A stretch of DNA of 55,765 nucleotides, taken from assembly GCA_019313505.1 (NCBI GenBank), contig JAFDBA010000001.1, forward strand, positions 1-55,765, written 5' to 3'. The stretch comes from Deltaproteobacteria bacterium. GTDB lineage: Bacteria; Desulfobacterota; Desulfobacteria; Desulfobacterales; UBA11574. The notes below the pieces were generated by a model. The model was given only the letters and a program-made list of their open reading frames with translations. It searched no databases and was not told where the DNA came from. Position numbers and translations under genes: made by a program. This document shows positions 595 through 4,666 of the stretch, piece after piece; position 1 is the stretch's first letter; every line of letters begins with the position of its first letter.

Positions 595-2472
595 TTAATA
601 GCTACCCAGAATTTTAAGATAATCTGTTTTTTCTTCAAGTAAATCGAATGTCGGTTTTAATGTTTCCGATCCAGCATCCGCCTCAAGGTCCACATAAAAC
701 ATGTATTCCCATGGTTTCCCATGGATGGGCCGTGATTCGAGCTTCACCAGGTTAACATGGTTTTCGGCGAATATTTTCAAAACCTCATAAAGGGCTCCCG
801 GCTGGTTTCCGGTTGAAAAAATGAGAGACGATTTTTGCCGTGGCCCTTTTTCGAGTTGATCAATACCTATGACAACAAAACGGGTGTAATTTCGCGGATT
901 TGTCTCTATTCCTTCCTCAATGACCGCCATCTCGTGCATTTCGGCGGCCTCCTTGCTTGCAATAGCTGCATCGACAGGATTAGCCGATGCGCTAATCTTT
1001 TTAACAGCTCCGGCAGTGTCCTTGACAGGTACCAGTTCCCAGCTTTCATGGCGATCAAGAAACTGACGGCATTGCTGAAAAACCATGGGGAGAGAAAATA
1101 CCCGTCCGATGGTGTCAGCCCTGGCTTCAGGATGGCCGATCAGATAATGTATAATGCGCAATGTGATTTCCCCCACAATTTTCAAATCATATTCCAGTAG
1201 AAAATCGTAGTTCTCATGTATGCTGCCCGTGAGGGAATTCTCCAAAGGCACCACACCGAAATCGACTTCCCCATCTTTTACCGCCTCGAAAATAGCCTTG
1301 AATGAAGGTGCAGGCACGGCTGCTACCTGGGTCCCAAAATACTGAGTACAGGCCTTATGACTGAAAGTGCCTATTTCACCCAAGAAAGCAGCCCTTTGTA
1401 TTCCTGTTCCGTTGGTTTTACTTAAGTGGTCGACGGCTTTAGCCTTATCCAGATAGTCAAAATCGAGTTGTTTTCCGACAACCGGTGCGATCACATAAAT
1501 GTCCCGCGTCAGTTGACCGAACTGTTTTGGGTAAAGGCTCTGGGGGCCATCGGAAAGTGCCCGATCCGGGTCATGATGCACTTCTATCATCAATCCGTCT
1601 GCACCTGCAGCAATTGCAGCCCGTGACATGGGACTGACTTTTTCACGGATACCGGTTGCATGGCTTGGATCGATAATCACCGGCAAATGGGTCAGTGTCT
1701 TAAGTACAGGGATTGCGGAAAGATCAAGAGTGTTACGGGTATAGGGTTCAAAGGTACGAATTCCCCGTTCACATAAAATAACCTTTTCATTTCCCTCCGA
1801 AAGAATATATTCGGCGGACATCAGCCATTCCTCAATAGTGGATGAAAGCCCTCTTTTTAAAACCACCGGTTTTCCGATACGACCCACGCACTTTAAAAGT
1901 TCAAAGTTCTGCATGTTGCGTGCCCCAACCTGTACGACATCTACATACTTCATCATCATGTCCGCCTGAGCGGGTGACGTTATTTCGGTAACAACACCGA
2001 GACCGGTAACTTCCCGGACTTCGGCTAAAATTTTGAGCCCCTCTTCCTGCAACCCCTGGAATGAATAAGGGGAAGTTCTCGGTTTGAAGGCGCCGCCGCG
2101 AAACAGAACAGCCCCGTATCTCCTTACCTCTCTGGCAATGGTCAGGGCCTGTTCCCTGCTCTCAACCGCACACGGTCCGGCAATAATAGTAATACGTTCT
2201 CCACCCACAACCACATCCCCAACCTGGACAAGAGTATCTTCGGTATGCAACTGTCTACTTACAAGTTTAAACGATGTGGATATTGGGATTACTTTGGCTA
2301 TGCCGGGAAGCTGTTCGAAAAAATCGGATTTTTTGCTTCCCTTGCCCACCGCTCCCAGTACGTTCTGTCCAGCCTCGGACATTTCACGAACAATATAGCC
2401 CTCACTGAACAATATGCTCCGGATATTGCTTTTTTGATCCTGCGTAATTCCCTTTTCCAGTACCAGAATCAT
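595..2472 (-). CDS. Fusion protein: N-terminal ferredoxin-like/ACT-like regulatory domain, type I-beta 3-deoxy-7-phosphoheptulonate (DAHP) synthase, prephenate dehydratase, C-terminal ACT domain (625 aa)
   Basis: DAHPS/KDO8PS-type motifs are present: [38 protein letters not shown]. After a linker comes a PDT domain ([31 protein letters not shown]) and a PheA-type ACT domain ([18 protein letters not shown]). ATG at 2472 has the AAGGAGGG SD. Confidence 0.85.
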
Positions 2473-2500
2473 GGTAACCCTCCTTTGAATTAAGGTAAAG

Positions 2501-2527
2501 AAACCTGGCCCAAAGGGCCAGGTTTTT
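2501..2527 (-). promoter_or_regulatory. GC-rich hairpin in the 5' UTR, about 28 nt upstream of the DAHPS-PDT start codon
   Basis: CCTGGCCC (2504-2511) / GGGCCAGG (2515-2522) with a 3-nt loop. The stem is extendable by the flanking AAA/TTT. The U tract on the minus strand is weak (UUUCUUU). Confidence 0.5.
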
Positions 2528-2546
2528 CAGGACAAAATAAACCCCA

Positions 2547-2580
2547 TAAAAAAAGCCCCGAGATTCTATTTCCCGGGGCT
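2547..2580 (-). terminator. Second terminator-like hairpin in the DAHPS-PDT leader
   Basis: Minus strand reads AGCCCCG, a 13-nt loop, CGGGGCU, then seven U. It lies 3 nt downstream of the attenuator U tract. Confidence 0.5.
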
Positions 2581-2582
2581 TT

Positions 2583-2624
2583 AAAAAATAAACCCCGGAC
2601 AGACCGGCTCTGGTCCATCCGGGG
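2583..2624 (-). terminator. Attenuator terminator of the Phe leader
   Basis: Minus strand 2624-2593 (CCCCGGAUGGACC-AGAGCC-GGUCUGUCCGGGG) folds into a 13-bp stem that includes 2 G-U pairs. It is followed by UUUAUUUUUU (2592-2583). Confidence 0.7.
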
Positions 2625-2686
2625 CGTTGTAACTTTAGGCGCTACGCAACCGGACGGACGCTTCTAAAACTAAAAAAGAAACGTCC
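2613..2686 (-). promoter_or_regulatory. Alternative pairings of a leader-peptide attenuator (1:2 hairpin and 2:3 antiterminator)
   Basis: Hairpin 1:2 pairs GGACGUUUC (2686-2678) with GAAGCGUCC (2664-2656). The antiterminator pairs GUCCGUCCGG (2659-2650) with CCGGAUGGAC (2622-2613) over 10 bp, one of them G-U. That pairing sequesters the 5' arm of the terminator and overlaps hairpin 1:2 by 4 nt. Confidence 0.55.
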
Positions 2687-2725
2687 AAAATCGTATTGAA
2701 ATCTGTTGAGATAGCGTATTAGCAT
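2642..2725 (-). CDS. Phe-rich leader peptide, 27 aa: MLIRYLNRFQYDFGRFFFSFRSVRPVA (below the ORF-track size cut-off)
   Basis: ATG at 2725, with AGGA SD at 2739-2736 (10-nt spacing) and stop TAG at 2644-2642. It contains 6 Phe and 2 Tyr codons. The run UUC UUU UUU AGU UUU spans 2680-2666. The ORF lies between a TTGACA promoter and the terminator, upstream of a Phe-pathway gene. Confidence 0.6.
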   Translation of the reverse strand: MLIRYLNRFQYDFGRFFFSFRSVRPVA

Positions 2726-2757
2726 CAAATTGGTTTCCTAATCGATATTCTTATATT

Positions 2758-2786
2758 TCTTTACTCAACTATTTTACGGCTGTCAA
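2758..2786 (-). promoter_or_regulatory. Sigma70-type promoter candidate for the leader and DAHPS-PDT transcript
   Basis: Minus strand reads TTGACA (2786-2781), a 17-nt spacer, then TAAAGA (2763-2758). This predicts a leader of about 275 nt. Confidence 0.4.
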
Positions 2787-2983
2787 GTACTGTTTTTAAA
2801 ATTAAGACCTGAACCCAGATCTAATGATCAATTGTTAACCGTTGTTTATTAACTATTATTTCCTGCACCTTGAACAGGGAACGATTTTTATATGTTATAG
2901 GCTTACATTAATTTATTGTTGCGGTTTTCACATGTTTTTGTCAAAATAACTATACGAAAATACTAAAAAAGTGAGGACATATA

Positions 2984-4012
2984 ATGAAAACCCTTGAAAT
3001 TCATGGCAGTTCAAAAAATTCAACGATACGGGTCGGCGAGAAATTGCAGAATCTGGGCAACTACATCCCTGGGGAGAATGTTGTTATTATCACCGATGTT
3101 AATGTAAAACGTTTTTATCAAAATAATTTTCCGTTACATCCCGTCATAACCATCCAAACCGGTGAGAAAATAAAAAATCTCGATACTGTCCGCAATATTT
3201 ACGGGAAACTATTAGAGCTTGGAGTTGATCGTTCAACTTTTATCATCGGAATAGGCGGAGGTATTGTCTGTGATATTACCGGTTTTGTAGCATCAACCTT
3301 TTTGCGCGGTATGAAATTCGGTTTTGTCTCCACAACCCTTCTTTCACAGGTTGATGCCAGTGTGGGTGGAAAAAACGGTGTCAATTTCAAAGGATACAAA
3401 AATATGGTCGGGGTTTTCAACCAACCCGAATTCGTCATCTGCGATCTTAATCTTTTAAGCACCCTGCCTGAAAAAGAGGTTTTATGCGGACTGGCGGAAA
3501 TTGTAAAACATGCGGCCATAGGAGATGCGGATCTGTTTCAATATCTTGAGGAAAATTATCAAAAAGCGTCAGCGCTTGATGCCGCAGTCATAGAAAGACT
3601 TGTTTATGATTCTGTCGTAATCAAGTCAGCCATTGTAAGTCAGGATGAAAAAGAAAAAGGAGAGCGCCGCAAGCTCAATTTCGGTCATACATTTGGGCAT
3701 GCTATTGAAAAAACAATAGGCGTTCGCCACGGAGAGGCTGTAAGTGCCGGTATGGTTATGGCTTCGAAACTTTCCGTTAAAAAAGGACATTTGCAGGCCA
3801 AAGATGCCCAAAGGATCAAAAATTTACTACGGGATCTTAAACTTCCCATCAGTCTTCAGGCAGACAGAAAAACGGTGCTTGACGCTTTGCGAAAGGATAA
3901 AAAACGTCAGGGAGATCTTATAAACTTTGTGTTGCTTGAAGGTATCGGCAAACCATTTGTGGATAAAATTTCCATAAATGAACTGGATAATGTACTAAAC
4001 GATTTTTATTAA
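2984..4012 (+). CDS. aroB: 3-dehydroquinate synthase
   Basis: 342 aa. It carries the typical AroB glycine-rich GIGGGIVCDITGF, the metal/substrate motifs LNFGHTFGHAIE and RHGEAV, and a GTGAGGA SD. It is transcribed divergently from the DAHPS-PDT gene. Confidence 0.9.
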   Translation: MKTLEIHGSSKNSTIRVGEKLQNLGNYIPGENVVIITDVNVKRFYQNNFPLHPVITIQTGEKIKNLDTVRNIYGKLLELGVDRSTFIIGIGGGIVCDITGFVASTFLRGMKFGFVSTTLLSQVDASVGGKNGVNFKGYKNMVGVFNQPEFVICDLNLLSTLPEKEVLCGLAEIVKHAAIGDADLFQYLEENYQKASALDAAVIERLVYDSVVIKSAIVSQDEKEKGERRKLNFGHTFGHAIEKTIGVRHGEAVSAGMVMASKLSVKKGHLQAKDAQRIKNLLRDLKLPISLQADRKTVLDALRKDKKRQGDLINFVLLEGIGKPFVDKISINELDNVLNDFY

Positions 4013-4054: not shown

Positions 4055-4666
4055 TCAAGGGAAAGTGCCCAGTTGTTTTACTCTAAGCAACCCAGGGCTG
4101 TTATGCAGGTACATCAGGGGTGAAGAATATCCCGCGTCCATGAAATAAAGTTCAAGATCATCAAAAAGGACCGGCCGGTCCGGCCAGGTATACAGCTTCT
4201 TGCGTTGTTTTAGTTCTTCCCAGGCATCTTCGGCCCATGCTTTTTTCCTGAACACCTCTTTCTTGGCCTGCTCACAGAGAAACATCTCACAAACTATCGG
4301 TTTAACACGCCATAAACAACCATTATTCCCGAGATAAATACATTTAAATCCGGTGTTGGGTTTTTGCAGCGCCTCCAGCAGGGCATTGATCTCTTCGTTG
4401 CAAGAGGCCAGTGTATTGACGACCATGTCTCCGAAAAAGGTAATGATGCCTTCACGAGAGCAGCAGGCACTGAGCTTGCTCTCGTAGCACTTTTTCGTGC
4501 ATAGATTGCTAAAATGCTCGGACAGAAAAGTATCGACTTCATCTCGGAACAACAGATAATCAGCAATTTTCACCTCGAGTACCTGTTTTTCGGATGGGGA
4601 AAGAGTCGCAAGGCAACGTTGCACCATGGTCAGCGATTCGGCCTGTTCTTGCTGGTATGAATTCAT
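4055..4666 (-). CDS. Cys-rich hypothetical protein (203 aa)
   Basis: Intact ORF with an ATG start. It has several Cys pairs (CTKKC, SACCS, NNGCLW, CEMFLCE) reminiscent of metal-chelating YkgJ-like domains, but I cannot assign the family. Confidence 0.5.
   Translation of the reverse strand: MNSYQQEQAESLTMVQRCLATLSPSEKQVLEVKIADYLLFRDEVDTFLSEHFSNLCTKKCYESKLSACCSREGIITFFGDMVVNTLASCNEEINALLEALQKPNTGFKCIYLGNNGCLWRVKPIVCEMFLCEQAKKEVFRKKAWAEDAWEELKQRKKLYTWPDRPVLFDDLELYFMDAGYSSPLMYLHNSPGLLRVKQLGTFP

Follow-up and report, generated by a model that had tools for sequence, protein, structure and literature searches.

A candidate phenylalanine attenuator with two successive terminators upstream of a DAHP synthase-prephenate dehydratase fusion gene in Desulfobacterales

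A hitherto unannotated stretch of about 240 nt on the minus strand of contig JAFDBA010000001.1 (positions 2786-2546; assembly GCA_019313505.1, a deltaproteobacterium of the order Desulfobacterales) was analysed as the 5' leader of a gene encoding a fusion of DAHP synthase (DAHPS; DAHP is the 7-phosphate of 3-deoxy-D-arabino-heptulosonate) and prephenate dehydratase (PDT). The leader most probably acts as a ribosome-mediated transcription attenuator that senses charged tRNA-Phe through a run of Phe codons in a short open reading frame (ORF); judged from sequence, we put the probability of this reading at roughly 85%, and it gives the stretch a concrete proposed mechanism. The leader lies within a window of 55,765 nt (the whole stretch of DNA that was analysed, numbered on its forward strand), combines a Phe-rich leader ORF with a chain of mutually exclusive RNA helices and two terminators, and is conserved in ORF geometry among orthologous loci, where all five helices covary. 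The fusion gene covers the first common and the Phe-committed steps of aromatic amino acid synthesis.

Anatomy of the leader

The minus strand was read from 3000 to 2400 to check coordinates, and the positions given in an earlier reading of this DNA (hereafter the original prediction) for promoter, Shine-Dalgarno (SD) sequence, ORF, stop codon, Phe run, hairpin, antiterminator and terminator were all exact. That reading had ended the element at 2583, where a terminator is indeed present, and had missed both a second one directly following it (2582-2552) and a third hairpin (2525-2501); the element ends near 2546. The features of the leader and the gene that it precedes are as follows, with the helices named by the segments (1 to 6) that pair in them.

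2786-2781, minus strand: -35 hexamer TTGACA, about 60 nt 5' of the leader ATG
2763-2758, minus strand: candidate -10 hexamer TAAAGA, after a 17-nt spacer
2739-2736, minus strand: SD-like AGGA, 10 nt 5' of the leader ATG
2725-2642, minus strand: leader ORF of 27 codons (ATG 2725-2723, TAG 2644-2642), peptide MLIRYLNRFQYDFGRFFFSFRSVRPVA
2701-2699, 2689-2687, 2680-2672 (three consecutive) and 2668-2666, minus strand: leader Phe codons
2687-2655, minus strand: hairpin 1:2, segment 1 UGGACGUUUC (2687-2678) and segment 2 GAAGCGUCCG (2664-2655), with Phe codons in the loop
2659-2613, minus strand: antiterminator 2:3, GUCCGUCCGG (2659-2650) with CCGGAUGGAC (2622-2613), one G-U pair
2625-2583, minus strand: terminator 1 (3:4), stem of 13-14 bp (2625-2612 with 2605-2592) and U tract UUUAUUUUUU (2592-2583)
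2599-2572, minus strand: putative relay helix 4:5, UCCGGGG (2599-2593, 3' arm of terminator 1) with CCCCGGG (2578-2572, 5' arm of terminator 2)
2582-2546, minus strand: terminator 2 (5:6), stem 2582-2571 with 2563-2552 and U tract CUUUUUUUAU (2551-2546)
2472-595, minus strand: DAHPS-PDT-ACT fusion gene, ATG at 2472, SD AAGGAGGG at about 2485-2478, 625 amino acids (aa)

The count of six Phe and two Tyr residues in the 27-aa peptide was confirmed, and Phe accounts for 6 of 27 leader codons, its share being 4.2% across the window's 30 long ORFs that were counted. The Phe run reads UUC UUU UUU AGU UUU (2680-2666), and the core of hairpin 1:2 pairs GGACGUUUC (2686-2678) with GAAGCGUCC (2664-2656). 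An effect of rare codons was rejected, because UUU is the preferred Phe codon (71%) in the long ORFs of the window. Terminator-like sites are in excess in the leader region (4 seen, 0.9 expected), and no second copy of the leader was found in the 55-kb window at up to three mismatches.

The promoter that had been proposed, TTGACA-N17-TAAAGA, is conserved in its layout. The -35 hexamer is kept at this place in nearly all orthologous loci, in which TTGACA-N17-TAnnnn occurs at the same position with a -10 hexamer that is often TATAAT or TAATAA; the TAAAGA of the window agrees with the consensus at 3 of 6 positions and was not called in a promoter scan of the leader region. An AGGA or GGA-type motif is present at a similar distance from the leader ATG in most orthologous loci. 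Directly 5' of the -35 hexamer, a block TTTTAAAAACAGT(T/A)C (2787-2800, minus strand) is kept in many loci; it may serve as an UP element, or as an operator that adds another level of regulation.

Searches of the 625-aa protein against Pfam confirmed the DAHPS-PDT assignment (DAHP_synth_1, 4.8e-81; PDT, 1.2e-61) and added an ACT domain and an N-terminal ferredoxin-like domain (DAHP_snth_FXD). Fusions of a ferredoxin-like-domain DAHPS to PDT-ACT are common in Desulfobacterales, with more than 566 relatives matched in the genome collection; literature searches returned no description of such a fusion polypeptide. Among the ORFs of the window there is no gene 5' on the minus strand to which the leader terminators could belong.

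Conservation of the leader and covariation of its helices

Orthologous loci were collected by a protein-guided scan with one genome per species, which gave 80 loci with the same fusion (68-95% identity), all from Desulfobacterales or Thermodesulfobacteriota and mostly from metagenome-assembled genomes (MAGs); a homologue search with the fusion protein matched only uncultured or MAG proteins. The original prediction had named the lack of a Phe-rich ORF or of a terminator upstream of orthologues as evidence against itself, and of the 75 loci whose upstream DNA was long enough, 73 carry ORF, antiterminator and terminator in the same geometry. These 73 leaders make up alignment A1 and are also the ones covered by the ORF table. 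A separately collected set of 91 leaders, picked by a pattern covering segments 1 and 2 only, makes up alignment A2. Metagenome contigs were scanned with the leader core TTCTTTTTTNNNTTTAGNNGCGTCCNNCCGG, which gave at least 120 loci and brought the total to at least about 190 examples.

The C-terminal 13 residues of the leader peptide are highly conserved among the 73 orthologous leaders. The paired segments 1 and 2 encode exactly the half of the peptide that is conserved (G-R-F ... R-S-V-H/R-P), and third codon positions there are almost fixed (GTC, CCG, AGC), so that constraint on the RNA alone could explain the conservation of the residues. The mini-ORF would then be accidental, in an RNA-only switch operated by a protein, a small molecule or T-box-like sensing of tRNA. 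Several properties of the ORF nevertheless leave such a switch only a minimal chance. The start codon (ATG in 70 of 73 leaders, GTG or TTG in the rest) is kept 12-13 codons upstream of the conserved part, across a segment that is essentially unconserved, yet contains no stop in 820 in-frame codons, compared with 20 and 51 stops in 751 codons for the other two frames. The distance from segment 2 to the stop codon is exactly 5 nt in 67 of 73 loci, the ORF is exactly 27 aa long in 48, and changes in loop length are in frame (3 or 6 nt; L067, L073 and L076). Within the unpaired loop, UUU codons are conserved at 90% or more while the intervening codon varies (Ser, Ile, Gly, Asn, Tyr and others), and almost every leader retains the FFFxF run. 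Models of T-boxes, PyrR sites and riboswitches all stayed below threshold in this region. The conserved codon run, the floating in-frame start and the fixed stop, taken together, argue that the leader ORF is translated, and are not predicted by an element acting as RNA only. Enrichment of Phe in the variable N-terminal part (16.5% in frame 0) adds only weak evidence, since this region is U-rich and frame 2 also contains 14% Phe. One leader (L013) has a 1-nt loop insertion, TTTTTTATGTTTT, that breaks the frame, owing either to a fault in the assembly or to decay of the leader; the ORF of another (L063) contains a duplicated motif, RFFFSFRRFFFIF.

Base pairing was evaluated over both alignments for the two alternative states, and the 1:2 / 2:3 / 3:4 layout of the original prediction held, both folds being supported by covariation. 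In the terminated state (1:2, 3:4 and 5:6), 95.7% of alignment cells are paired in A1 and 95.9% in A2 (slid controls, 29-58%, and 29-57% in A1), with 14 and 11 pairs, respectively, changed on both sides. For the antiterminated state (2:3 and 4:5), the proportions are 98.6% and 99.2% (slid controls, 23-67%), with four pairs changed on both sides in A1. The individual helices gave 94.4% for hairpin 1:2 (A1; four pairs changed on both sides), 99.3% and 99.9% for 2:3 (A1 and A2), 97.1% and 99.2% for 3:4, and 95.3% in both alignments for 5:6, where 6 and 10 pairs have changed on both sides. The most informative position is column 112 of segment 3, which is A or G and covaries both with segment 2 (pair 55/112: UA 33, CG 20, UG 18; A1) and with segment 4 (pair 112/136: GC 40, AU 33; A1), so that a single strand serves two alternative helices. 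This three-way covariation of segments 2, 3 and 4 is matched by one of segments 4, 5 and 6.

Helix 4:5, which would connect the two terminators, is paired in 97.6% (A1) and 98.3% (A2) of cells and contains a covarying pair (CG 50 and UA 17 in A1; CG 46, UA 35 and UG 8 in A2). Where segment 4 has U at this pair, its partner within terminator 1 stays G (GC 46, GU 44; A2), and the base thus tracks segment 5 and not segment 3. The same segment-5 base covaries in turn with segment 6 (AU 34, GC 30, GU 23; A2). Among 136 distinct leaders, 130 have a called terminator 2, which in 118 accompanies a U-tailed terminator 1, and at least one terminator was called in about 134. In about 12 of the 136, the 3:4 hairpin is without a U tail and an intact terminator 2 is the sole terminator, so that the signal could reach it only through 4:5. 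Helix 4:5 is therefore likely, if less securely than the attenuator as a whole, to function as a relay. The switch would then be a six-segment relay resembling that of the his leader and disarming both terminators, with the middle hairpin doubling as a terminator in most members.

The covarying 2:3 and 4:5 helices, for which a plain terminator has no use, also bear on whether the leader is a constitutive gene for a small RNA or small protein that acts in trans, with the DAHPS-PDT gene transcribed from a downstream promoter of its own. A strong, conserved -35 hexamer followed by two efficient-looking terminators would be expected to yield an abundant RNA of about 165-205 nt, and a trans-acting attenuator RNA and peptide are known in rhizobia (rnTrpL and peTrpL). 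The shortest orthologous leaders, however, have only 19-35 nt, SD included, between terminator 2 and the gene start, which leaves no room for a separate promoter, and the element is always found 5' of Phe-pathway genes on the same strand. We consider a stand-alone gene of this kind extremely improbable, although the attenuator may have a role in trans in addition to attenuation.

A proposed mechanism and the points that weigh on it

Response to Phe supply, ribosome stalling, the transcription start and the order of folding can all be proposed from the arrangement of these elements. Transcription would begin about 7 nt past the -10 hexamer, near 2751, and a ribosome would translate the 27-codon leader. 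With ample Phe-tRNA, it would reach the UAG codon at 2644-2642, where its footprint would mask segment 2 (2659-2650); segment 3 would then pair with segment 4 to form terminator 1 (2625-2592 and the following Us), and any polymerase escaping it would meet terminator 2 (5:6, 2582-2552 and the following Us). The 3' ends of terminated transcripts would be expected near 2583-2590 or 2546-2551. If Phe-tRNA is in short supply, a ribosome stalled at the Phe codons at 2689-2672 would mask segment 1, so that segment 2 is freed and pairs with segment 3 before segment 4 has been made; the displaced segment 4 would pair with segment 5, neither terminator would form and the DAHPS-PDT gene would be transcribed. 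Without translation, hairpin 1:2 would hold segment 2 and both terminators would form. Tandem terminators may lower the basal leak while inducibility is kept.

The arrangement agrees with the geometry expected of an attenuator, in that Phe codons 2689-2672 lie in and next to segment 1 and segment 2 would be masked once the ribosome has reached the stop codon, assuming generally accepted footprint sizes. The leader ORF has a start codon and an SD sequence, the Phe codons are clustered, an intrinsic terminator precedes the gene, and a covarying antiterminator excludes it. The Phe-tRNA attenuator reading of the original prediction is thus supported by conservation and covariation and was incomplete, having covered neither the six segments and two terminators nor the occurrence of the leader before genes other than the fusion.

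Predicted helix energies were -14.6 kcal/mol for hairpin 1:2 (present in both the minimum free energy (MFE) and the centroid structure), -24.1 for antiterminator 2:3, -27.8 for terminator 1, -16.4 for helix 4:5 and -19.9 for terminator 2. Folding had been suggested as a check for two mutually exclusive structures, and each was obtained under masking: 2:3 is the MFE fold if segment 1 is masked before segment 4 has been transcribed, and terminators 1 and 2 form with a ribosome masking the stop codon. Without a ribosome, 1:2 is predicted to stay and to restrict 2:3 to about 6 bp. The leader folds better than any of 200 shuffled sequences (z = -4.0 for 2583-2760 and z = -5.2 for 2473-2760).

Several observations weigh against the proposed mechanism. 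Once segment 4 is present, both terminators are the equilibrium MFE structure even with segment 1 masked, and the folding check gave no antiterminated state at equilibrium. Antitermination would therefore have to be kinetic, like that of the classical attenuators, which folding programs cannot show, and the case for it rests on covariation and the order of transcription rather than on the MFE. Hairpin 1:2 and the antiterminator strand have only 4-5 nt in common, so that blocking of 2:3 would depend mainly on the ribosome at the stop codon, and stalling at 2668-2666, the last of the four Phe codons in the run, would leave segment 2 partly masked. The arms of both terminators (CCCCGG/CCGGGG) are self-complementary, and some 4:5 pairing is expected between any two such terminators. 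Kinship among the sequences inflates the statistics obtained by shuffling. The metagenome leaders (at least 120) were picked by a pattern fixing segments 1 and 2, and provide independent evidence only for terminator 1, terminator 2 and 4:5. In the window itself, both the -10 hexamer (TAAAGA) and the SD (AGGA, 10 nt from the ATG) are weak.

The conserved peptide tail could also be taken as the sensor itself, if FGRFFFxFRSVHPxx in the exit tunnel caused stalling when free Phe is present, in the way that TnaC senses Trp. Conservation of the C-terminal 13 residues is unusual for a leader peptide and extends over at least six operon contexts, and the position of the stop codon is fixed. Where residues of the tail differ, base pairing is nevertheless preserved (in segment 2, Asn or Gly replaces Ser; His/Arg covaries with segment 3). 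The two positions that precede the stop are variable (VA, VV, DR, AV, EQ and others), and cognate codons in a run are characteristic of sensors of tRNA charging. Stalling at the stop codon would, moreover, mask segment 2 and favour termination, which gives the same sign of regulation without a special peptide. A nascent-peptide sensor in place of tRNA sensing is accordingly very unlikely, and the conservation of the tail is better attributed to RNA pairing. A broader possibility, for which we see a small chance, is an independent function of the FGRFFFxFRSVHP tail, or of the terminated leader transcript (about 165-205 nt), either as a nascent-chain sensor of free Phe or as a peptide or small RNA acting in trans like peTrpL and rnTrpL; such a function, if real, would explain why a nearly unchanged module precedes at least six Phe-related operon layouts.

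Operon contexts, related leaders and surrounding sequence

The genes downstream of the metagenome leaders were identified by tblastn and Pfam. These loci share the tail ...FGRFFFxFRSVHPxx*, in peptides of mostly 27 aa, and the terminators, and in the loci examined the leader is always 5' of Phe-pathway genes on the same strand. The six layouts found downstream of the leader, fusion included, are as follows.

Layout 1: DAHPS-PDT-ACT fusion
Layout 2: DAHPS of 271 aa, then chorismate mutase-PDT-ACT (pheA)
Layout 3: ACT-pair protein of about 147 aa (PF19571), then DAHPS, then pheA
Layout 4: ACT-pair protein, then pheA
Layout 5: pheA alone
Layout 6: ACT-pair protein alone

Occurrence before six layouts ties the leader to phenylalanine supply and not to one gene, and as judged from these loci it appears to be a marker of an order-wide Phe regulon in Desulfobacterales. 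The ACT-pair protein, which we take to resemble Bacillus PheB, is often encoded by the first gene under the Phe leader (L135:4867-5304, L199:5460-5903, L138:12054-12509, L191:1327-1770 and others). In some loci it is the only Phe-related gene, and is then followed by a gene for a methyltransferase, an AraC regulator or a 2-hydroxyacid dehydrogenase; three loci with the ACT-pair gene only (L135, L199 and L128) have about 100 nt of extra conserved, structured-looking sequence between the leader stop and terminator 1, a distance that is 14-33 nt among the 73 orthologous loci. The family connects phenylalanine supply with the PheB-like protein and with a few adjacent genes of unknown role.

Rfam models were scanned at E <= 10 over 2300-3100 and at gathering thresholds over the whole 55-kb window, in which none of them matched. 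The best score in 2300-3100 was that of the trpB motif (30.4 bits; gathering threshold 59), and both His_leader (RF00514; 22.8 bits, E = 0.26, gathering threshold 49) and Phe_leader (RF01859; 18.1 bits, E = 3.1, gathering threshold 55) fell well below the scores required for membership. The T-box model gave no match at E <= 10 in this region, which places the leader outside that class as well. The weak matches to the trpB motif, PyrR, His_leader and Phe_leader, none of them at threshold, were rejected as mere reflections of the two terminator hairpins. The sequences thus define a conserved family of regulatory RNA and leader peptide without an Rfam match, marking Phe-pathway operons across an order known mostly from uncultured sediment genomes.

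The closest functional counterpart is the pheL-pheA leader of E. coli and other gamma-proteobacteria, which shares a short ORF with a Phe run, a terminator with an overlapping antiterminator, a prephenate dehydratase gene downstream and charged tRNA-Phe as the inferred signal. In contrast to the present leader, with which it has no detectable homology, E. coli pheL encodes 15 aa (27 aa here), forms four segments and one terminator (six and two here), and precedes a chorismate mutase-PDT gene rather than the DAHPS-PDT fusion of Desulfobacterales. The six-segment architecture resembles the enterobacterial his leader, which forms hairpins A:B, C:D and E:F when terminated and helices B:C and D:E for read-through. 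The about 12 leaders with a 3:4 hairpin that has no U tail correspond most closely to it, 3:4 taking the place of C:D; the his leader differs in using His codons, and in most members of the present family, that of the window included, the middle hairpin is a full terminator. T-box leaders of aromatic amino acid genes in Firmicutes and some delta-proteobacteria likewise let transcription pass a leader terminator if the cognate tRNA carries no amino acid, but bind the tRNA directly and have no leader ORF.

Ribosome-mediated attenuation as such is textbook, and the leader changes no principle of gene regulation and would not surprise a specialist; what appears to be new is the Desulfobacterales family and the relay of one sensor to two terminators, a modest architectural twist. 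It would extend classical attenuation well beyond the gamma-proteobacteria, where pheL was defined, and provide a clean natural example of a single sensor whose signal passes through consecutive helices to reach two terminators in tandem. Gurvich et al. 2011 (PMC3082878) state in one sentence that Desulfobacterium autotrophicum, of the same order, 'potentially' uses a pheL gene, which may belong to the same family. That sentence mentions neither sequence, structure and conservation nor a second terminator, a relay helix or a distribution over several operons, and literature searches found no description of a Desulfobacterales Phe leader beyond it. A possibly analogous or related leader in Geobacteraceae may be indicated by part of PMC2700814.

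Beyond the leader and the fusion gene, further features of the surrounding sequence were located.

2984-4012, plus strand: 3-dehydroquinate synthase gene (aroB), divergent from the fusion gene
2525-2501, minus strand: third hairpin AAACCTGGCCCTTTGGGCCAGGTTT, perfect, with a weak U tail

About 160 nt 5' of the leader promoter there is a second promoter-like site that scores better than it, TTGACA-N18-AACAAT (10 of 12 matches; site region 2915-2944, minus strand), with a small terminator-like hairpin between the two (2805-2822, minus strand); both may be part of the divergent aroB control region. Two ORFs on the minus strand adjoining the aromatic genes (79-489, 136 aa, and 4055-4666, 203 aa) had no match in Pfam.

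The third hairpin lies in an insertion of about 40 nt between terminator 2 and the SD (2501-2546, minus strand), found in this genome only, which also contains a 6-codon ORF, ATGGGGTTTATTTTGTCCTGA; there is no other copy of the hairpin in the window. It was rejected as a part of the switch, being absent from the closest orthologous leaders, where the SD directly follows terminator 2. Palindromic insertions resembling miniature inverted-repeat transposable elements are present between attenuator and gene start in five loci of close relatives (about 210 nt in L003, L004 and L012; about 50 nt in L006 and L007), flanked by inverted repeats CCTAAATTGAGCG ... CGCTCAGTTTAGG, and six more (L011, L025, L031, L033, L041 and L060) carry inserts of 170-420 nt there that are unrelated, so that the site looks like an insertion hotspot.

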